A DNA stretch of 64,000 nt, from positions 1 to 64,000 of IMG/VR virus record IMGVR_UViG_3300035180_002210; one strand, written 5' to 3'. A model generated the notes under the pieces. The model was not told the DNA's origin and made no database searches. It saw nothing but the letters and a program-made list of their open reading frames with translations. The DNA is from a virus. The translations under genes and the position numbers were made by a program. The stretch's first letter is position 1; each line of letters starts with the position of its first letter. This document shows, one piece after another, positions 3,953-33,200 of the stretch.

Positions 3953-4122
3953 CAGCCGACAATGTTCTTTGCATAGTGATCTGGACGGTAGTTGTGTTTG
4001 CTTGCGGGTTCGTAATTGGTACTGTAAGGGCCAGACGCAAGGTTTACCTGGATTTGACAATAAAAAAATCCCCGGCAGCAATAGGGGGGGATTACTACCG
4101 AGGATTGGACAGAGAAAACTAA
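3949..4122 (+). CDS. 57-aa single-transmembrane protein
   Basis: ATGA overlap with the upstream stop; MTADNVLCIVIWTVVVFACGFVIGTVRARRKVY... (hydrophobic helix followed by basic residues). Confidence 0.6.
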   Translation: MTADNVLCIVIWTVVVFACGFVIGTVRARRKVYLDLTIKKSPAAIGGDYYRGLDREN

Positions 4123-7234: not shown

Positions 7235-9777
7235 TGAGACTACTTGAATTGAAATTACGCGGCGCAATTGGTATCTGGAAAGGTTTGGGCCTTGATGAAA
7301 TACAGGTTGATTTTTCCCAGTTTGAACCGGGCCTGATTGCCTTAGTAGGTACGAACGGCTGCGGGAAGTCCACAACCATCGAAAATTTACACCCATACCG
7401 CAGGCTGGTAAGCAGGACCGGATCTTTCAAACGGCATTTCCGGCTAAAGGATTCATTCCGATACCTGAAATATGAGATCGACGGGCATATCTACGAATCG
7501 AATATCTTAATTGACGCCTTCACAGAAGGAGCGCAAGCATTCCTGATTAAGGACGGTCAGCCGGTGAATGATGGTAAGGTTAAAACTTACGACGTTGAAA
7601 TTGAACAGCTTTTAGGTTCGGAGGAATTATTCTTTAATTCGGCCTTTTCAGCCCAAGGCGCAGCGGGTATTGCCGGGATGACAGTATCAGAACGGAGGAA
7701 GCTATTTAACGAAGTTTTGAATTTGCTCCGCTACACCCAGTACCATGAGTATTCGAAAAAGCAATTAAGCAAGAGCGAAACAGCACTTGCGAGGATTGAA
7801 GGCGAACTTAGCGCCATCCAGCCTATAAACGATCCACAATACAGCGAGGAGCGGTTAAAAGAGCTCAAAAATATAACCCTTGACCAAAAGAAAGAAGTAG
7901 AATTACTGGCGGGTGAATTGGGCGATATTCTGGCAAAAAAAACGACGCTTAACGACCGGTTGATTAAAGAGCAGGCCGATACCAAAAATAACCGGCAGGC
8001 GAATAATGACCTTACCGAGCGGACCAGCGCGATTCAGAATAAAATTGTTTCCGTCAAATCTTATTATGAAACGCTGCTATCCTCGAATGAAGCAAAGCGC
8101 GCTTCCATAAAAAAGAGCATTGAGACGTATGATAAGCTGCTTGCCAACAAAGAGACAATAGAATTGAATCTGGGACGGCTGGACTGGTGTAAAACAGAAC
8201 TGGCAAAGCTGGATGCAGGCGTCAACTGGGCGAAAGATGCTTATTCGGCAGCGCAGGAATATGCAGAGGTCGAACGCCAGAAACTAATTCTTGACAGAGA
8301 ATCAATAAGCAAAGCCACGAAGGACGCAGAGGACATTCAAAGAAAAGCCAGGGAAGATTATGCCTGGAATCTGGATGAATTGGTACCGGCCAGAAAAGAG
8401 ATTGAGGCCAATGAAAAGAAGATCAGCGACCATGAGTATAACCTACGGTCCTATCGCAATAAGCTGAAAAAAATTGAGGAAGCCAGCCGTCTTGTTTCTT
8501 CCGTTCCCTGCGATGCTGCTTTGGGAGCTACCTGCAAGTTTGTTTCGACCGCACACGCGGCGATACAAAGCAAAGCAGACGTTGAGAAGGAAATATTTGA
8601 GACTGAAAAAGTTATTGAACAGCTCCGGCAGCTAAATATAACGAAGCAGGAAGAGATAGCCACGAAGGAAGATGCTCTGAAAGCTGAGTTGAACAGCAAT
8701 ATGATAACCTATGATACTGCTATTCGAACCATTGAGGCGCAGCGGCAGGAACTTAACCGGAGAGAAAGCGATATAGCAAAAACGCTTGAAACTGTCAGTA
8801 TGAAGCGGGATGAAATTATTGCATCTCTTAAACCCCAGAGGGAAGAAGCTGAAACAATTCAGTCCGTGTTACAAGCAAACGATTGGACGAAACTTAAAGA
8901 GCGGGCCGCGGACGCGGAGAATCAGAAAAAAATCCAGGAGCATTCACTTTCCAGTCTCGAAGCATCGGAGGCTGATGCCAAGATGCGGTTTGAGGCCGAC
9001 ACGAAGGAGTTAACCAATGAGTTAACTGAGCTGGAAAAGAAGTTTATTCAAATTGATGAAACACGGATCCCGGGCCTTGAAGCAGAGATACGGCGGGAAA
9101 CCGAACTCTTCAAAACCAAGGATGAAAAATACAAAAAGCTCCAAAGCGATATTAACGACCGCGAATATGCCATCGTGACCGTTGAAACAAAGATCGAAAC
9201 CGAACGGACGAATGCCAAAAAGCGGGAAACACTTGAGGCGGAAAAGACCGGTGTTCAGATGGATATAAGGGAATGGGCCGCACTTTGCAAGGCATTCAGC
9301 CCTACCGGAATACCGGTATTAAAATTGGAAAACAGCGGGATTGACGTAACGCTTTACGCGAACGAGCTTCTTTCCCTCTTCGAAAATAAATTCCGGATAG
9401 CGTTCGATACCACCAGGCTTGACGTGGACAAGAAGAACCTGAAAGAAACCTTTGATATAAACATCATTGAGCCTGACGGGATTTGCGAAATATCCAATAA
9501 AAGCGGCGGCGAGAAAGTATGGCTTGAAACGGCTATTCAGTTGGCCATCAGTTTGTTAGGCCGCAGGCAAGGTAAGAGCATTCAGACGGCCTACCTTGAC
9601 GAGAAGGACGGAGCACTAAGCCTCGAAAATTCAATGGCTTATTTCGAAATGGTTAAGAAAGCGCATGAAATGAGCCACGTATATCATACGCTGGTGATTA
9701 CCCATACGCCGGAGATCATAGACGCAATTCAACAGCAGGTCATATTCAGTGACGGCTATCTAACGTATAAAAATTAA
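7234..9777 (+). CDS. sbcC: SbcC/Rad50-like SMC ATPase
   Basis: Walker A GTNGCGKST, long coiled coil with central PC-x7-C, signature KSGGE, Walker B AYLDE, ITH loop. Confidence 0.93.
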   Translation: MRLLELKLRGAIGIWKGLGLDEIQVDFSQFEPGLIALVGTNGCGKSTTIENLHPYRRLVSRTGSFKRHFRLKDSFRYLKYEIDGHIYESNILIDAFTEGAQAFLIKDGQPVNDGKVKTYDVEIEQLLGSEELFFNSAFSAQGAAGIAGMTVSERRKLFNEVLNLLRYTQYHEYSKKQLSKSETALARIEGELSAIQPINDPQYSEERLKELKNITLDQKKEVELLAGELGDILAKKTTLNDRLIKEQADTKNNRQANNDLTERTSAIQNKIVSVKSYYETLLSSNEAKRASIKKSIETYDKLLANKETIELNLGRLDWCKTELAKLDAGVNWAKDAYSAAQEYAEVERQKLILDRESISKATKDAEDIQRKAREDYAWNLDELVPARKEIEANEKKISDHEYNLRSYRNKLKKIEEASRLVSSVPCDAALGATCKFVSTAHAAIQSKADVEKEIFETEKVIEQLRQLNITKQEEIATKEDALKAELNSNMITYDTAIRTIEAQRQELNRRESDIAKTLETVSMKRDEIIASLKPQREEAETIQSVLQANDWTKLKERAADAENQKKIQEHSLSSLEASEADAKMRFEADTKELTNELTELEKKFIQIDETRIPGLEAEIRRETELFKTKDEKYKKLQSDINDREYAIVTVETKIETERTNAKKRETLEAEKTGVQMDIREWAALCKAFSPTGIPVLKLENSGIDVTLYANELLSLFENKFRIAFDTTRLDVDKKNLKETFDINIIEPDGICEISNKSGGEKVWLETAIQLAISLLGRRQGKSIQTAYLDEKDGALSLENSMAYFEMVKKAHEMSHVYHTLVITHTPEIIDAIQQQVIFSDGYLTYKN

Positions 9778-25644: not shown

Positions 25645-25883
25645 ACGTAGATACGGTCCCGATACTTGCAACCATTATTCTTATTGCGACAGCAGCCACG
25701 TTTATACTTGGAATAGGCGCCTATGTTATTCACGGCAGGAAAACGAAGCTGCCATTCACCCACTATGAGAAAGACATTCTGGAAAAGAAAATCCAGAACA
25801 TTCTTTATACCGGCAATAATAAATACCGGACCGAAGAGCTTATAAAATTAATCGGCGAAGAAGTCAGAAAAGCAAAGAAATGA
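25641..25883 (+). CDS. Small membrane protein
   Basis: N-terminal transmembrane helix; overlaps both neighbours. Confidence 0.6.
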   Translation: MNVDTVPILATIILIATAATFILGIGAYVIHGRKTKLPFTHYEKDILEKKIQNILYTGNNKYRTEELIKLIGEEVRKAKK

Positions 25884-28800
25884 AATTCGTAGTTAAATAT
25901 CCGGACTATGAAGGCGGCTTCATTTACAAAGCCGTTGAAGGGTATAATGTTGTTACCAGGGACAATGACCTACATATCATTGACTCCCGGCCCATAAATA
26001 TGCTCAGGAAGGGATTAGACACCCACCGGGGTAAGATTTTACGCTATGACGATAGTACGGTAGAGGTTTTGACAGATCAGGGCGTAAGGACAGCCGACAG
26101 AGAATTATTTAACCGAGTTCTGATTCATAAGTCTATTGCCACCCAGGAACGGCAGGCAGCGGACGAAATTTGGCAGCGAGGCGGCCTGATTAAATCAGTT
26201 CGTAATATGATGACGGTAAAGCCCCCAAAGGTAAAGGACAATACTGTTAAACCGCCATCATCGGGCGGCCTGGCATGGAATGCGAAGGGCGGGCAGAAAC
26301 CCGATCATAAATACATCGAGCGCAGGCCATCACCCACAAGGCCGGATGAATGGGTTTATTTATACCAGCTTCCTAATGGTGAGAAGAAATGGCATGATGA
26401 GAGCGGCCAGGAAATAAGCGAACAGGACGCAAACTCCGCAGCGCAGAACGAGCCGTCAGAAGGCAATTTAACCGGGTATAAGGAAGGTTCGTTCGTTAAG
26501 GTAAACAGCAGAACCGCCAGAGTGAGCGGCGTAGCTGATAATGTAATTTCGGTTCAGTATGATGACGGCAGTGAGGAAATACTTTCTTCCTTCCAGTTGA
26601 ATCCGAAGTTGCAGAAAGTTGGAGCAAACTATTTTGATCCGCAGTCACAACAGAATTATGCAGTTGAAACGATAGGGGACAATGTATTTTTAGGCAGGAG
26701 CCAGAGCGGAGAACTCAGGGCTTTTTTGAAACGGAAGATTTTCAAGCTCAGTGACGAGCAGATACACCCTAAAACAAAGTCACGGCTGGACCCGAACCAC
26801 TACACCCACGACAGCGTTTACAAAACTTATGCTTCTCATTCCCAGGCGCACGGCTATGATGAAATGAGCGACGATGGTTTGAACTATGCAAAAACCACAC
26901 CGGTTGCAGGCGGACAGTGGACTATAAACCGCGAATATGATCCGGCTACAAAGGAATTTACCGTGAGTGTAAACGGGAAAAAGGATTTCAAAATTGACTA
27001 TGAGGGCAAGAACCTTGAAGTTATAGACGCGACGGACACGGACATTATTGCCAAGGACGAAACCGGCGGGATCTGGAATGTTGATAAACGCCTGTACGGC
27101 GATTATTTACGGAAACAGGGGTTGAAGATCCCCGCAGCGGGTGACAATTCAGGGTTGAGCGAAACAGACCAGATATTGAAACACGTTACGGACACCGGCA
27201 GCCAGGGAGATAAAGCAATTTCAAACGCCACCGGCATTCCGTTAAACCGGGTGAAAAAATACCTTGCAGACCTATTGATCGACGGGAAGCTCCGGCACCG
27301 GAACGGGGAGTATTCGACGAAAGAGAAACCGAAAGGACGATGGGTAGCTGATCAGAAGGCGCCAATCGTCAGCGCAGAGGAGCGGGCCAAGGGTGAGCAG
27401 GAGCGGTTGTCCAGGATTAACGATAAGAATGTTGCCAAAAATTCAGATGAGTATAAGACCGGCACTTCTTTATTGGAGAAGGAAGGGTTTAATCTTAACC
27501 CGAATAATGAATTTTACGCATCGAAGCGGGTACGCGCGAACGGCTTAGATTTTGACATCGAGGCCAAGTATAACATGCAAACCGGATTGTGGGAAACCCA
27601 AGTTTCTAACGGCCATTACAAGGAACTGCAAATAGGCAGCAATCCGGATGAAAAATTCAAGATAGCCGATATCACCGGTGACACCGTCAGGTACTATGAC
27701 CATAACGGAAAAATCAATTCAGTTGATTTGAAAGAGCTTGAAGCGATAAACGGCAGAAATGTATTTGAGCCTACCAAGGCGCAGAATGCCAGCCAGAATA
27801 TTGCTATGGGTGATCAGACGGAGATTGTATATGCCAATGGTGAAAAGCACAAGGCAAACTACGCGGTAGTTGAGCTTGACGATATTACCGCCAGCCACGA
27901 CGAGCGGACATTCCTTCCAAACAAGAACTATCCGCAGATGGACGGCCAGAGCACGAACGACCGGGATTATACCAAGAATCTGGACGATCAGCGCATGGTT
28001 CAAAAGGTTGAACAGAACTGGGATAACCGGACTATCAACAACAGCCAGCAGGCGGACCAACATATTATTATTTCACCGGAAAACTTTGTTGTTTCCGGGA
28101 ATAATAGGACGATGAGTGCGAAGTTAGCCAGAGAGAGTAACCCGAAGGCTTGGGAAGCGTTCAAAGAAAAGATGATAGCCGACGCCAGTTATTACGGGCT
28201 GGATCCGGAAGCCATAAAAGGGATGAAGCACCCGTTTTTTGTGAAGATTGACGCCGATACGCCGAAGGATGAGAACGGGAAATACGTGTACCGGAAATCG
28301 GAGCTTGCGAAATTCAATGCCGATGATAAGAAGTCCAAGACCGAAGAAGAAGAGGCCATGACCTACGGGGACGCGATTCAGGGCCGCCCGGAGATCATGG
28401 AGGTACTTGCAGACGCCATGAAGGATAAGGAAACACTTAGCGATATTTTGAACAGCAAAGCGGTTGATACGCAGAAGGCGTTCAGGGATGCCCTATTCCA
28501 ATCCGGGGTAATGCCGCAGCAGGCAGCGAAAAAGTATTTTAATCCGGACGGCAGCTTAACGGATAACGGTAAAATTCTCGTTCGCAGCGTACTCAAAGGG
28601 ACATTCCTCAGCCCGGACACGTATGAACTTTCCACGTCAGAAGGTATGAAAACCTTCGGTGACGCCATCATTGATAATGTTGGAGCGAACTCTATAAACG
28701 CCAGCCTGCACCCTGAATGGAGCCTGCAGAACTACATTAATGATTCAATACGACTTGAAGGGAAATATCAGTACAGCGGGGACTACAAGAAGAGCGGCAG

Positions 28801-30265
28801 CCCGTTTGAGCAGATGTTACGCATGCGGAATATGTTTGATGCACCGCACGACCGCCGGACCGTAGCTTTGAATCTGCTTGCTAAGAAGGGGAAGGAAGTT
28901 TACGGGAAAATTCTGAAAGATTATAACCAGACGGCCAGCACCGAGCAGACCAACAACATGGATAGCATGTTTGGTGAGAACATTACACCCGAAAACCTGT
29001 TTGAATCCGCGGTGATCGACGGGGAGTATAAGGGTAAACCGATATTTACACCGGAGGACCGGAAACTGCTGGATGAATTCAAATTTGAAACCCAGCCGAG
29101 CAAAGGCGGGAAATGGCAGAAACCGAAAGATACGTCAGCGGTTGATAAGGCGTTCAATGAAGCGACCGGGCAGCAGGAGGAAACGCAGCAGGTAGAGAAG
29201 TCGATTGATACCAGTCATAACGCACTTCTCCCGTCAAAGAAGAATCCGCGGGTGAGCCGGTGGCAGAGGATTGAATCAGCAAGTGCAGAATATCAAATTG
29301 GTGATTTTGGACCTATCTATCATCAGTTCAAGAAGAGATCAAAAGAAGCCATTCAGTTCCTTGTTGAAAAGAAGGACGGAGAGGCAATAGGCGCATTATA
29401 TCATCCAGCCATAGGCGATATTGATTTGGTTTGGGGTAAAGAAGGGACTGGAAATAATGATGGATACGGGCTTGCGAAAATTGTTAAATACCATCCGGAA
29501 GTAGTTGAAAATCTTCAGGGAATATTGGAATCTATGCCAATTAAGAGTAAAGGTAAAAATAGAATTCGATTAGAAGATAACAACCATGAAGCGGCTGTGA
29601 GTTTAGAATGGTATGGTAAGGCGAAGACCTGGTTGTTAACCGAGTACCAAAAACAAAAAGCCGCCCGAAGTATGAACGTGGGCGGCGAATCTCAGTTGAG
29701 ACCAGATGAAACGACTACTTCATCTGTAAATCCAGTAAGCAATATAGTGAATGCAGGTGATGAAAGTCAAGAGATTAACAAAGGGATGAACGCAGTAGAT
29801 TTCGCGCTGAAATATCACAAAGACCAGAAATATAACGGTCAGCCGTATGTAGAAGCGCATTTGCAGCCGGTATTTGAAATGAGTAAAACACTTTGGACAG
29901 CCAGCGACAGGAAATTAGACTTTGAAACCTTGGGGAAGGCGGCCTTCCTTCACGATGTAATGGAGGACACCGATGCGACCTATGATCAGGTGAAAGAGCT
30001 TTTCGGACAGGACGCCGCGGATGCCTGCCAGCTGCTTGATACTACTAATAAGACCAAGGACGAGTATTACGCGGGAATAGCTACTTCTCCGTTAGCCAAG
30101 TTAATAAAGGCGGCAGACCGGCTTGTAAATCTGAAATCGCTTGCAGCTCACCCGGACGTTGACTGCGCAGCCTATCTTAAAAATAAATACCGGAATGATC
30201 TTGCATACTATGAGAAGTACGACATTTACCCGGACCTGATTAAACAGGCAGTAGACGAATTATAA
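25880..30265 (+). CDS. Polyvalent protein 1: DdrB-like ParB domain, PBECR-like RNase domain, HD (RelA/SpoT-type) hydrolase
   Basis: YAVVELDDITASHD...RDY...VVSGNNRTM (ParB-like, ~27850-28340); IGDIDLVWG...GYGLAKI...H...WLLT (PBECR-like, ~29300-29650); H..Q...PY..H...LHDVMEDT...KAADRLVNL (HD, ~29790-30260). Confidence 0.8.
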   Translation: MKFVVKYPDYEGGFIYKAVEGYNVVTRDNDLHIIDSRPINMLRKGLDTHRGKILRYDDSTVEVLTDQGVRTADRELFNRVLIHKSIATQERQAADEIWQRGGLIKSVRNMMTVKPPKVKDNTVKPPSSGGLAWNAKGGQKPDHKYIERRPSPTRPDEWVYLYQLPNGEKKWHDESGQEISEQDANSAAQNEPSEGNLTGYKEGSFVKVNSRTARVSGVADNVISVQYDDGSEEILSSFQLNPKLQKVGANYFDPQSQQNYAVETIGDNVFLGRSQSGELRAFLKRKIFKLSDEQIHPKTKSRLDPNHYTHDSVYKTYASHSQAHGYDEMSDDGLNYAKTTPVAGGQWTINREYDPATKEFTVSVNGKKDFKIDYEGKNLEVIDATDTDIIAKDETGGIWNVDKRLYGDYLRKQGLKIPAAGDNSGLSETDQILKHVTDTGSQGDKAISNATGIPLNRVKKYLADLLIDGKLRHRNGEYSTKEKPKGRWVADQKAPIVSAEERAKGEQERLSRINDKNVAKNSDEYKTGTSLLEKEGFNLNPNNEFYASKRVRANGLDFDIEAKYNMQTGLWETQVSNGHYKELQIGSNPDEKFKIADITGDTVRYYDHNGKINSVDLKELEAINGRNVFEPTKAQNASQNIAMGDQTEIVYANGEKHKANYAVVELDDITASHDERTFLPNKNYPQMDGQSTNDRDYTKNLDDQRMVQKVEQNWDNRTINNSQQADQHIIISPENFVVSGNNRTMSAKLARESNPKAWEAFKEKMIADASYYGLDPEAIKGMKHPFFVKIDADTPKDENGKYVYRKSELAKFNADDKKSKTEEEEAMTYGDAIQGRPEIMEVLADAMKDKETLSDILNSKAVDTQKAFRDALFQSGVMPQQAAKKYFNPDGSLTDNGKILVRSVLKGTFLSPDTYELSTSEGMKTFGDAIIDNVGANSINASLHPEWSLQNYINDSIRLEGKYQYSGDYKKSGSPFEQMLRMRNMFDAPHDRRTVALNLLAKKGKEVYGKILKDYNQTASTEQTNNMDSMFGENITPENLFESAVIDGEYKGKPIFTPEDRKLLDEFKFETQPSKGGKWQKPKDTSAVDKAFNEATGQQEETQQVEKSIDTSHNALLPSKKNPRVSRWQRIESASAEYQIGDFGPIYHQFKKRSKEAIQFLVEKKDGEAIGALYHPAIGDIDLVWGKEGTGNNDGYGLAKIVKYHPEVVENLQGILESMPIKSKGKNRIRLEDNNHEAAVSLEWYGKAKTWLLTEYQKQKAARSMNVGGESQLRPDETTTSSVNPVSNIVNAGDESQEINKGMNAVDFALKYHKDQKYNGQPYVEAHLQPVFEMSKTLWTASDRKLDFETLGKAAFLHDVMEDTDATYDQVKELFGQDAADACQLLDTTNKTKDEYYAGIATSPLAKLIKAADRLVNLKSLAAHPDVDCAAYLKNKYRNDLAYYEKYDIYPDLIKQAVDEL
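29649..29735 (-). ncRNA. Candidate ~85-nt structured antisense RNA nested in polyvalent gene 1
   Basis: 8-bp hairpin at 29703-29726; terminator stem GCCGCCC/GGGCGGC at 29660-29686 followed by TTTTTGTTTTT on the minus strand; own promoter. Confidence 0.65.
29741..29770 (-). promoter_or_regulatory. Antisense sigma70 promoter inside the coding sequence
   Basis: TTGACT-18 nt-TATATT on the minus strand. Confidence 0.65.
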
Positions 30266-30299
30266 CAAATAACAGCATATATCAGTTAACAGGCGAAGC

Positions 30300-33200
30300 A
30301 TGGATAATCTTGATGATAAATTGAAGGCGGACAAAAACTTTAAGCTACAAGGACGTAAAAGCTTTCAGGGCCTTGATATTGCGGTAGAGAACCGGCCCGG
30401 CAGCATACGCAGCGGGCTTGACAATGACGGGGAGGAATGGGAAACCCGTATGTTTTATGAATATGGATATATCCGCGGCACGCTTGGAGTTGACGGCGAG
30501 CAGGTAGATTGCTATGTGGGTAAAAACGCCGACAGCCAAAAGGTTTTTATCATCCATCAGAAGAATCCGGAAACCGGCAAGTATGATGAGGATAAAGTTA
30601 TGCTTGGGTTCACAGATAAAACACACGCCAGGGACGCCTATTTGGCACACTACGACTCGCATAAGTTCCTTGGTGAAATAACTGAAATGACCATCGACGA
30701 ATTAAAAGAGAAATTGAAAACCAGGAAGGGTAAAATGATTAAGAGCGTATCAATTTTCGGTAAAAAAGTATTGCAGGCGTTCGAGGATATTTTTAAGTCA
30801 GTGAAAGTCCGGGATCTATTGACTATGAATATGTTTGACGCCGCGAATCCGGATGATGAGGTGACAGAGGGTAAAACCGTAGTAAAAAACGGAAAGACTT
30901 ATGAATACCGCCGGAGCCAGAAAAACCCGGGGGTACGCAGATTGTTTTCCACCGAGCAGGACGAACCGGCGCAGCCGGATTTATTCCAGACCGCTCCAAA
31001 GATAGCAGGGCCTACACCGAAGCAGGCAGCGGCCTTGGGTGAGCATGAGCCAGTAGACCAGGCAGCCATGAAGGAGGCCACAAAGAGAACTAAATTATTT
31101 GGCCAGCAAGTAAGTTTATTCGATCAGCAGGAAGAGCCGAAAACTGCAAAAAGCCTTGTAAAAATAACTAATAAAATAACCGGTGAATCTGCAAAACCGG
31201 ATGAAAAAATAACTGACAAGATACCGGAAGAGGAACACCCCGAGACAATAGGTGATGATCTGTTCTCCCAGCCAGCACCCAGCCCGAAAAAGAAAGAGGA
31301 TGAAGAAAACCCGACAATGGCGTTTGGAGCGGAGGCTATTGATAAGAACGTCGTGAAGAAACGGCAGGAAATAAATGCCAAAGCGCTTGAACTTCTTAAA
31401 ACAAAGAAACCTGAAGAAATGACAATGGATGATAAAATAATCCTTGCTCAGTATTCAGGCCGCGGCGGATTGGGCGGAAACACTTTTGACGATATCAGTT
31501 TGAACGAATATTACACCAGGACGCAGGAAGCACAGTTTATTTGGGATATGTTAGGGAAGTTTGGCTTCAAAGGCGGACCGGTACTGGAACCGAGTTCCGG
31601 AGTTGGCGTATTTATCCATACCGCGCCAAAGGACACCATAGTTGACGGCGTAGAGCTTGATAAGACGAGCAGCGCTATTGCTTCCATACTTCACGGGCAA
31701 TTCCACAACATAACGAACCAGAGTTTTGAGCAACATATAAAAGGAAGCGACGGCGGAAAATATGCAGCGGTAGTAGGAAACCCGCCATTCGGGCCGCGCG
31801 GAATGACCTCAGTTGACGATCCGGAAAAGATAGACTTGAACACCTGCCAGGAATATTTCCTTGACCGGGGTATTGACGAACTTGAAGAAGGCGGGTTATT
31901 GGGAATGATTGTTCCCACGGGTATCATGGATAACCAGGTGAATGAATGGCGGCTTTCTCTCAATAAAAAGGCAGACTTTTTAGGCGCAATCAGGATGCCT
32001 ACCGGAGTATTTAAGCATGCAAAGGCTCAGGTAACAACGGATATTGTATTTTTCCGTAAAAGGGATGATGCAGTACGGGACTATCTTGAAAACGTTCCTA
32101 AAGAGGATTTGAAGGGCTTATACGACGCTCAAATTCTTGACGCGGAGTTTATTGCCGGTAACTATTTTGAGAAGAACCCGCAGTACGCCCTTGGAACAAA
32201 GAAGCGCGGGCAATGGGAAGGACAGAGCATTTGGACCGGTGACATAAGCCGGGGTGATCTGGATGAAGTTGGAGCATTACTGAAATTTACGGATCGGGAC
32301 GCGGAATATCAGAAGCTTGGAATCCTCATTGATCGACTGCCGGCAAAAGAGCTTCATGTTGGAGATACCAAAACATTCAACGGGCGCACCTACCGATTGA
32401 ACGAAAACCACCGATGGGAAAGGGTTGATGAAGCGGAGCTGGGTAAAGAATCCCTGCCAAAAGAGCTGCAGGAGAAGCTTGGAATAAAAACAAAAGCAGA
32501 ATTTCAGGCCTTGCAGCGGGACGTAGCGAAAAAGCTTGAACTCACCCGCGAGCAGTTAAATCTTCTGGATGATAAGGTTTTGTCATCGGAGCTGGAAGCG
32601 TACAATGACAAAAACGACTTCCGGGCGGAAATGCTGAAGCACGCTACTTTGTTAGGGCTGGCAGTTAAAAAGTTTCAGATTGATTTACGAAGCGGGGCCA
32701 TTGAAGGAAGCGACGCACAAAAAGAAGCAGCTAAGCTTGCAGGCTTGCTCAATCAGTTCCATGATAAATACGGACACCCGATTAATGATTTGAAACTGAA
32801 ACGGTACTTAGGGCGCACAACCGGAAACCCTATTCTTTATTTGGCCGGGTCCTTTAACGAGGACGGCGGGTTAAGCGCAATTTTTGACGATCCACTGGCT
32901 TACTACGCAGTATACAGGACAAACTACGAAGTGGGTGAGCTTGACAGCAAGAGCATACCGAAAATTTTACAATATCTGGTTGATAACGGGCTTGACACTT
33001 CTTTCGAGTCTATACAGTCCATGTACAGCGGCGGCACCATCGAAGAAAATGAGCTTATCCGTGATGAGAATGTTTTTATTGACGAGAACGGCGGGTATAG
33101 CCCAACGCAGGAGGTTTGTGTAGGTACGGTTTATAATAAACTGGATGCCTGGACAAAAATGCGAAAAGACATCAGCGAAAAATTGTCAACTCCGGCAGGG

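Follow-up and report, generated by a model that had tools for sequence, protein, structure and literature searches.

Within a 64,000-nucleotide stretch of viral DNA (positions 1 to 64,000 of IMG/VR record IMGVR_UViG_3300035180_002210; hereafter the window), the linker behind the PBECR1 RNase domain of a large phage protein very probably contains, on the opposite strand, a conserved antisense transcription unit, that is, a minus-strand small-RNA gene. The first-pass annotation of this DNA had proposed a structured antisense RNA of about 85 nucleotides (nt) behind a PBECR-like RNase domain, and comparison of sequences upholds such a unit: its predicted promoter, its 5′ hairpin (P1) and its terminator hairpin (P3) recur in distant phages. 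The case is built on the predicted anatomy of the unit, the conservation of its place and orientation, covariation in P1 and P3, constraint at the nucleotide level, conservation of the antisense promoter and linkage to the RNase cassette. We infer that an RNA is produced with ends close to those predicted, and that it may bind and inhibit the RNase.

Anatomy of the antisense unit

The unit lies wholly within the open reading frame (ORF) 25880–30265 of the plus strand, opposite to it in orientation. This ORF encodes a 1461-residue polyvalent virion protein with ddrB-ParB, PBECR1 and HD phosphohydrolase domains, as assigned with Pfam and PHROGs. Positions 29649–29770 are the codons for residues 1257–1297, the linker leading from the RNase to the HD domain. 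The coding region of the PBECR1 domain, delimited by homology, occupies 29300–29656 of the plus strand; the Pfam match (PF18809) covers residues 1172–1261 and scores 36.3 bits, above the gathering cut-off of 27.6.

On the minus strand, the unit begins with a predicted sigma-70-type promoter. Its -35 box TTGACT (29765–29770) and its -10 box TATATT (29741–29746) are separated by 18 nt, inside the usual spacing of 16–18 nt, and the two hexamers (29770–29765 and 29746–29741) match the sigma-70 consensus at 10 of 12 positions, a score that 200 windows drawn at random from this region all fail to reach. Transcription would start near 29734. P1 (29703–29726, minus strand), supported by folding and covariation, is a perfect hairpin of eight Watson-Crick pairs, CAGATGAA/TTCATCTG, with an additional closing G-U pair and the loop UAGUCG; it belongs to the type II variant described below. 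It is followed by P2 (29689–29702, minus strand), one small middle hairpin found by folding, in which GUCUC pairs with GAGAU and which holds the TCTC/GAGA stem at 29690–29701. P3 (29660–29686, minus strand) is a stem-loop with a 7-bp GC stem, GCCGCCC ... GGGCGGC, recovered by folding, by terminator scan and by alignment. Directly after P3 the minus strand reads TTTTTGTTTTT (29659–29649); in the RNA this would be the U-rich tail UUUUUGUUUUU (29649–29659, minus strand), identified from the sequence and by a T-tail scan. The stem at 29686–29660 and this tail together form a predicted intrinsic terminator. On the plus strand, the tail region is the codons for QKQK at the end of the PBECR1 domain.

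The minus-strand RNA of 29740–29645 folds into exactly P1, P2 and P3, with a free energy of -31.2 kcal/mol. The promoter, the 8-bp hairpin, the TCTC/GAGA stem, the GC terminator stem and the U-rich tail that the first-pass annotation had described are thus all present where it placed them. It had also noted that GAAGTA (29667–29672) is the reverse complement of TACTTC (29716–29721), and this complementarity is there; judged by eye, a similar pairing is possible in the related locus L068 and not in L086.

The window sequence taken alone

Taken alone, the window sequence is suggestive, not beyond chance. Compared with dinucleotide shuffles, the fold of the minus-strand RNA 29740–29645 has z = -3.53, and none of 200 shuffles is as stable. 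Against permutation of the gene's synonymous codons, which leaves the protein unchanged, the minus strand has z = -2.04, with 23 of 1000 permutations as stable as the window fold, and the plus strand has z = -2.28. The two strands fold with comparable energies (-29.1 kcal/mol for plus, -31.2 for minus). By raw minimum free energy the feature ranks 242nd among 10,652 windows of 96 nt. Between 25000 and 38000, 18 promoter-like sites were found against 19.5 expected from shuffles, and 19 terminator-like sites against 15.8. In a custom scan of both strands of the window, the P3 site is the second strongest of 91 T-tail sites; a separate terminator scan lists just an inner 5-pair version of P3. It is the comparison with other PBECR1 phage loci that lifts the feature above chance.

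Sequencing runs containing this phage numbered four for DNA and none for RNA. Contigs of the four DNA runs are identical to the window over 29069–31500, so they offer no natural variants against which the stems could be tested.

Recurrence of the unit behind PBECR1

Five aligned PBECR1 stretches (alignment A1) retrieved 80 viral loci, which together with five metagenome loci collapse to 57 non-redundant PBECR1 loci (labelled L with a number); the hairpin census was run on 58 non-redundant loci, including the window. Among 161 protein relatives, similarity is confined to the PBECR1 stretch, and the segment WLLTAFEKK is followed by a variable linker rich in T, D, S and G. Searching 50,697 phage records by blastn with 28900–30265 and with a region of L071 gave no match. 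One distant locus came from a first protein-pattern scan of viral contigs, and 42 loci matching PBECR1 or HD came from a metagenome protein-pattern scan, the linker being common to none of them. P0008, the protein whose linker is closest to that of the window, and P0005 were not found in the viral contig set; P0005 was found in genome contigs.

A counterpart of P1 is present in 27 of the 58 loci, 35–80 nt past the domain end and antisense to the gene. Terminator-like sites point to the same place. Eight of the 15 strongest minus-strand terminator-like sites within the ORFs of the 57 loci (dG <= -12 kcal/mol) are near the domain end, defined as -40 to +300 and amounting to 7.6% of the ORF length; almost all of these are at offset 0–4, as in the window.

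When each of 54 loci was compared with synonymous resampling, z < -1.64 at the domain end was reached by 17% of loci on the plus strand and by 19% on the minus strand, compared with 2–4% at about 300 nt upstream (-303). In the most significant loci, the z-score against synonymous recoding is mostly more negative on the minus strand (for L068, -6.35 vs -4.22).

Covariation of P1 and P3

Two types of P1 can be distinguished. Type I, found in 23 loci, has on the minus strand the form stem-(N)AGCUGUGUCAU-stem. Type II has the shorter loop GGAGUCGU or GUAGUCGU and is found in four loci, namely the window, L068, L079 and L086; the window P1, with loop GUAGUCGU, aligns to the other three without gaps. 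In type I, the five core pairs are unpaired in 0–1 of the 23 sequences each, and GC, CG, AU and UA are all used. The covariation score of 0.74 compares with 0.267 +/- 0.032 in shuffles, of which 0 of 500 reach 0.74, and with 0.13–0.24 when the partners are slid; RNAalifold agrees with this hairpin. In the four type II sequences, 29 of 32 cells pair and seven of the eight pairs show compensatory changes, giving a covariation score of 1.0 vs 0.32 in shuffles (0 of 500 reach 1.0). The amino acids encoded by the P1 stems vary widely among loci.

P3 behaves in the same way. The window P3 aligns without gaps to five other loci; in these six sequences 41 of 42 cells pair, with three compensatory pairs (GCCGCCC/GGGCGGC, GCCGGAA/TTCCGGC and GCCGGGG/CCCCGGC). 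For the four type II members, RNAalifold run on the complete minus-strand RNA predicts P1 and P3, with 10 of 16 pairs compensatory and the closing G-U of P1 in all four. The U tract directly follows P3 in the AT-richer members. Covariation in homologs downstream of PBECR1, which the first-pass annotation had named as a check, was therefore found for both P1 and P3. Its expectation that the stems be conserved holds for these two in related loci and not for the small middle stem: P2 has a hairpin at the same place in L068, and it is not conserved in L079 and L086.

The loop of type I is constrained as nucleotides, not only as a peptide, because the third letters of its codons are kept against codon usage. 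The four loop codons have the consensus third letter in 22, 23, 20 and 23 of the 23 loci, where locus-specific codon usage predicts 9.6, 12.4, 5.1 and 4.6; the GC content of these loci is 39–69%. From Bacteroidota-type phages to phages of Pseudomonas and Bordetella, the type I loop sequence is unchanged. The few non-Watson-Crick pairs indicate the strand. On the minus strand, the type I core has four G-U and one A-C among 115 core cells, and P3 has three G-U and no A-C in the six sequences. The placement of G-U pairs on the minus strand is evidence that the minus strand is the active one.

Conservation of the antisense promoter

Promoter elements recur upstream of P1. Of 26 evaluable loci, 25 carry a minus-strand TAnnnT box whose distance upstream from the loop GUC is 22–40 nt, and related loci again show a TTG-type -35 box, separated from the -10 box by 16–18 nt. 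When the 56 nt preceding P1 on the minus strand are scored for their best -35/-10 match, the mean is 8.19 of 12; it is 4.25 for minus-strand windows drawn at random from these loci, and none of 10,000 resampled means reaches 8.19. On the plus strand of the same DNA the mean is 3.62; the minus strand scores higher than the plus strand in 24 of 26 loci (Wilcoxon p = 1.9e-5).

Eight loci have instead TA(T/C)(C/A)TTTG at the promoter position. The Bacteroidota sigma-A -7 consensus given in PMC9723704 is TAnnTTTG, which these eight boxes match. Prevotellaceae and other Bacteroidota are the source of the protein relatives that have this linker type. The nucleotides of these boxes are kept while the peptides that they overlap differ (NI, SI, TI, KD, KY, SM, SL).

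PBECR1 loci without a type I or II hairpin also have a higher promoter score on the minus strand (6.74) than on the plus strand (3.55). Among them one rhizobial-type subset of 12 sequences, including Agrobacterium phage Atu_ph08, carries TTGGAC-17-TATATT or TTGGAC-17-TACATT and a different hairpin, CUGAG/CUCAG, with several G-U pairs on the minus strand. This promoter and hairpin lie behind PBECR1 on the minus strand at about 2853–3030 in L096, L100, L102, L104, L108, L116 and L120, and at 989–1166 in L152. At least three RNA variants are therefore predicted, with a common place and orientation. The plus strand of the third-variant loci reads ENIS here, with an ATA codon.

Linkage of the unit to the RNase module

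Comparison with an orthologue indicates that the RNA unit moves with the RNase module as one cassette. P0005 (1636 residues) is 74% identical to the window protein over residues 1–1110 and 58% identical over the HD domain, and it has one PBECR2 module where the window protein has PBECR1. The DNA that encodes it, L045, is a contig of an Ignavibacteriales metagenome-assembled genome. Blastn of the window against L045 shows homology up to 29112 and again from 29785, a point 15 nt past the -35 box. The segment without homology, 29113–29784, holds both the PBECR1 module and the entire antisense unit, which places them in one swapped segment; the cassette membership supposed by the first-pass annotation is in keeping with this.

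An antisense unit was also noticed behind the PBECR2 module of the orthologue (L045:6938–7052, minus strand), about 40 residues past the domain. Its promoter-like site is TTGACA-17-TATCTT, and it includes a hairpin of 11 perfect base pairs that carries a T tail (z = -3.59). No relatives of this PBECR2 module were found in the viral contigs, so the antisense unit behind PBECR2 stays a single case. The motif EKSI(D/E)...LLPSKKN.R..RWQR flanks the exchanged modules in both orthologues (window 29168–29275; L045 about 7240–7320), and in P0005 the PBECR2 module is preceded by EKSIE and followed by NKSID. The motif may be a module boundary or a processing site; VEK|S, one of the two putative cleavage motifs between which the first-pass annotation had set the cassette, falls here.

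A covariance model of type I P1 (R1) was searched over 534,658 nt. It gave 47 hits with E <= 3.3e-4, every one of them just past a PBECR1 domain and antisense to it. The type II P1 of the window is not detected by this type I model. L056 contains a second copy, and its contig carries two PBECR1 domains. In L081 the hit is at a point where the ORF has already ended, after the stop codon (2878); in L007 the hairpins likewise persist past the stop codon, and the usual linker motif continues in another frame. That all R1 hits are on the minus strand was not counted as evidence for the active strand, for it merely restates their orientation to the gene. R1 gave no hit in genome G001, and in 151 bacterial genomes of the phylum of G001 it gave five weak hits (23–28 bits), none near PBECR1, which we deemed false.

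Two cultured phages carry the motif: Pseudomonas phage Itty13 (38.2 bits) and Bordetella phage BPP-1, in gene bbp10 (32.8 bits). In both the hit is 34 nt past the PBECR1 end, with a TATATT or TACAAT box upstream. In the Itty13 locus (L151, MW460249.1 7625–9331) the PBECR1-encoding frame is open over all 1707 nt, and two annotated coding sequences lie on the opposite strand, meeting inside the domain (locus 825/865). Judging from this frame, the deposited annotation of Itty13 may have called the wrong strand in this region.

In the reverse direction, a two-block DNA pattern derived from the RNA was searched over the viral contigs and gave 20 contigs, 12 of which have PBECR1 on the other strand ending 21–33 nt away. 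Copies without the domain were found as well. L140 has kept only KTWLLSAFEKK, the last 11 residues of PBECR1, between a different preceding domain and an InPase domain. In L138 and L139 the upstream domain is again another one, and a PBECR5 domain follows about 300 residues further on.

Weighing the antisense unit

Several observations weigh against a conserved antisense RNA gene tied to the RNase at this place. Over the 54 loci, z at the domain end averages about 0 when set against synonymous resampling, and the notion that structure is universal after PBECR1 was rejected on this ground. No type I or II hairpin is found in 31 of the 58 loci. GC-rich members have no U tract directly after P3. 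The stems are nearly pure Watson-Crick, which is compatible also with kissing between sense and antisense RNA or with a hairpin in the DNA. No adjacent PBECR1 was found in 8 of the 20 pattern contigs, even with a hidden Markov model, and three of these eight form one seemingly unrelated lineage, two more being unclear.

Proposed function and alternative explanations

For the function of the unit we favour, tentatively, a role of the RNA as inhibitor or decoy of the PBECR1 RNase. The predicted sigma-70-type promoter (29770–29741) would start the RNA near 29734; the RNA would form P1, the small variable P2 and then the GC hairpin P3 with its U tract, where transcription would stop near 29650, within the final codons of the RNase domain, for a length of about 85 nt. 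As the antidote of the cassette, it would be bound by the PBECR1 domain through its fixed-loop hairpins, as a substrate-like inhibitor or decoy. This would silence the RNase in a virion-producing cell or a carrier of the prophage; once injected into a new host, the protein would be there without the RNA and become active. Since a gene for an immunity protein is impossible in the middle of an ORF, an antisense RNA gene in the linker could take its place as the antidote.

Three observations favour this route. The loop is fixed across phyla, which suits direct recognition better than cis-antisense pairing, in which target and RNA change together; the general point on a fixed loop as opposed to a co-changing antisense pair is made in section 17 of PMC5737381. 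The overlap lies after the toxic domain and would be a poor block on RNase synthesis. The orphan copies resemble orphan immunity genes.

In a wider view, phage polyvalent RNase modules in general would carry their own immunity as linker antisense RNA, one per RNase cassette; as a rule this is rather doubtful. The fixed loops would then mimic the natural substrate of the RNase, and the enzyme would be inactive in the producing cell or lysogen; the type I loop core U-GUC-A may resemble an anticodon loop. The domain-less copies of L140 and L138 would be orphan immunity against RNases injected by competing phages, and the PBECR2 unit of L045 and the third, rhizobial-type variant would be further instances of a cassette with an RNA antidote.

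The alternative that survives best, though somewhat unlikely, is cis-antisense control of the type I kind, which the first-pass annotation had also listed. Here the RNA would pair with the sense mRNA of the polyvalent gene; the mirrored hairpins would meet loop to loop, the duplex would be cut and the message broken after its RNase-coding part, so that leaky expression in a lysogen would yield only unstable products. By position the RNA is fully complementary to the sense message, both strands can fold given nearly all-Watson-Crick stems (the type I core cells counted above), the promoter looks constitutive from its sequence, and three different structures at the same place and orientation fit a role set by position, not by sequence. 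Against this, the RNA covers a region after the RNase domain, not the start codon or ribosome-binding site; the loop fixed at synonymous sites over very distant phages is left unexplained; and L140 and L138 retain the unit even with their RNase domain replaced.

A trans-acting small RNA, directed at RNAs or proteins of host or phage that have nothing to do with the RNase and placed in the linker only because coding space is free there, is unlikely. The fixed loop motif and the second copy of GUGUC in the type I P3 could be seed regions, and copies without PBECR1 do exist. However, such an RNA would need a common target in hosts of different phyla, and the linkage to PBECR1 is strong both ways (47 of 47 model hits, 12 of 20 pattern hits).

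We consider it improbable that the hairpins are an element of the sense strand (for ribosome pausing or mRNA processing) or a DNA boundary element, with the promoter boxes as by-products. The sense mRNA certainly exists, the two strands of the window fold with similar energy, the unit sits at a recombination boundary, and stops and frame changes fall at this point, five of the 57 ORFs ending within five codons of the domain. Such an element would leave unexplained why -35 and -10 boxes with 16–18 nt spacing are kept on the minus strand only, why the box switches to the Bacteroidota -7 type, and why TTGGAC-17-TATATT of the third variant is conserved; moreover, each minus-strand G-U pair would become an A-C mismatch in the sense RNA. 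That the feature arose by chance, or follows from conservation of the linker peptide (RTTDT ... DDTA ... NI), is very improbable: the window alone is weak (z = -2.0 vs synonymous recoding), the loops encode recurrent peptide motifs, and Ala-Ala and Gly-Gly codons pair naturally, but the stems covary and the residues they encode vary freely, synonymous sites hold against the codon bias of each genome, and the motif survives both in another frame and beyond stop codons.

Comparison with known systems

In type III toxin-antitoxin (TA) systems, the ToxI RNA consists of tandem repeats of about 36 nt as an antitoxin precursor, and the ToxN/AbiQ endoRNase is encoded downstream of ToxI on the same strand. 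Under the favoured reading the phage unit would be analogous, a small structured RNA beside an endoRNase that neutralises it directly, and RNA and RNase travel together on phage-related DNA in both. The likeness to ToxI drawn by the first-pass annotation fails on anatomy: Tandem Repeats Finder (minimum score 30) gave no tandem array in window 28800–30400, and the phage RNA is antisense, inside the ORF and 3′ of the RNase domain, whereas ToxI is upstream and on the same strand. The RNase also differs, being the PBECR1 (BECR-fold) domain of a 1461-residue virion protein and not ToxN/AbiQ; Pfam finds PBECR1, ddrB-ParB and HD only in this protein and no ToxN/AbiQ family.

In type I TA systems the toxin is a small (under about 60 residues), usually membrane-active peptide, and the RNA blocks its translation. 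Like the RNAs of these systems and other kissing-loop RNAs (Sok/hok, SymR/SymE, CopA/CopT), the predicted phage RNA is short and hairpin-rich, with a constitutive-looking promoter and an intrinsic terminator, and it is encoded opposite a toxic gene product, the unit overlapping the mRNA of ORF 25880–30265. Different from them, the sense product is no small toxic peptide but a multidomain protein of 1461 residues, the overlap begins some 3.8 kb into the ORF, after the toxic domain and far from the start codon, and the loop sequence is conserved across phyla. Polymorphic toxin-immunity cassettes and barnase-barstar offer a third comparison. In these too a nuclease module and a putative antidote are inherited and swapped together, and copies also occur without the nuclease; here, however, the antidote would be an RNA nested in a linker of the same frame and not a downstream protein gene.

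No prior description of a PBECR1-linker antisense RNA was found in Rfam 15 or in the literature searched. For the window region Rfam 15 returned only isrD, with E = 6.1 and 16.5 bits where the gathering score is 37, and for six related loci nothing at the motif. A full-text literature search for PBECR1 returned PMC5512222 alone, in which the words antisense and linker each have 0 occurrences. Nothing relevant came of searches that combined polyvalent protein, antisense RNA and phage, or antisense RNA and either BPP-1 or bbp10. The BPP-1 motif of PMC5737381 is linked to the diversity-generating retroelement and is different from the PBECR1-linker motif.

Structured-RNA searches mostly scan intergenic DNA, and RNA genes inside reading frames are missed. 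In the present case, a whole predicted promoter-to-terminator unit is kept in a protein-coding linker across phages of hosts from different phyla. If its RNA controls the RNase, this would explain how phages make and package a potentially self-harming nuclease, and how nuclease modules are shuffled between polyvalent proteins with the safeguard kept; it would add an RNA-based layer of immunity to phage-phage and phage-host conflict. The proposal is directly testable, as BPP-1 (bbp10) and Itty13 are cultured and carry the motif.

Host gene, its surroundings and further observations

The viral contig of the window is 72,034 bp in length, with genes almost all on the plus strand. In the 1461-residue protein, the ddrB-ParB domain covers residues 653–789 (Pfam). 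The Pfam match to the HD domain is weak (residues 1305–1382, 22.7 bits, under its cut-off), and PHROGs identifies a metal-dependent phosphohydrolase at residues 1305–1445 (E = 2.6e-24). According to PHROGs, portal and head genes are located upstream of the host gene, and a gene for a 2247-residue DarB-like methylase/helicase downstream. Polyvalent proteins packaged in phage particles are described in PMC5512222; by its domain set and neighbouring genes, the host gene encodes a packaged protein of this kind. Within the PBECR1 core, the GDIDLVWG-coding positions 29393–29437 are matched over about 45 nt by other contigs of runs X2 and X3, which then diverge; at the DNA level, then, this core is common to other PBECR1 genes in these samples.

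Besides P3, the window has its strongest terminator-like sites at 4068, 14653 and 14786, all on the minus strand as well; the plus, gene-bearing strand has weak sites, the best at -8.5 kcal/mol. The ORFs that end within five codons of the PBECR1 end are those of L005, L007, L081, L090 and L123. L007 (2100–2200) has an A run before its first hairpin and a T run after it and looks like a two-way terminator, and in L090 (2860–2900) the usual linker motif comes after an in-frame TGA. In L003, an identical 14-bp minus-strand hairpin with a T tail (-19.8 kcal/mol) occurs twice, at +534 and -1265 from the domain end; it lies within repeated modules of 45–104 nt, an observation that also concerns L004:1963–4017.

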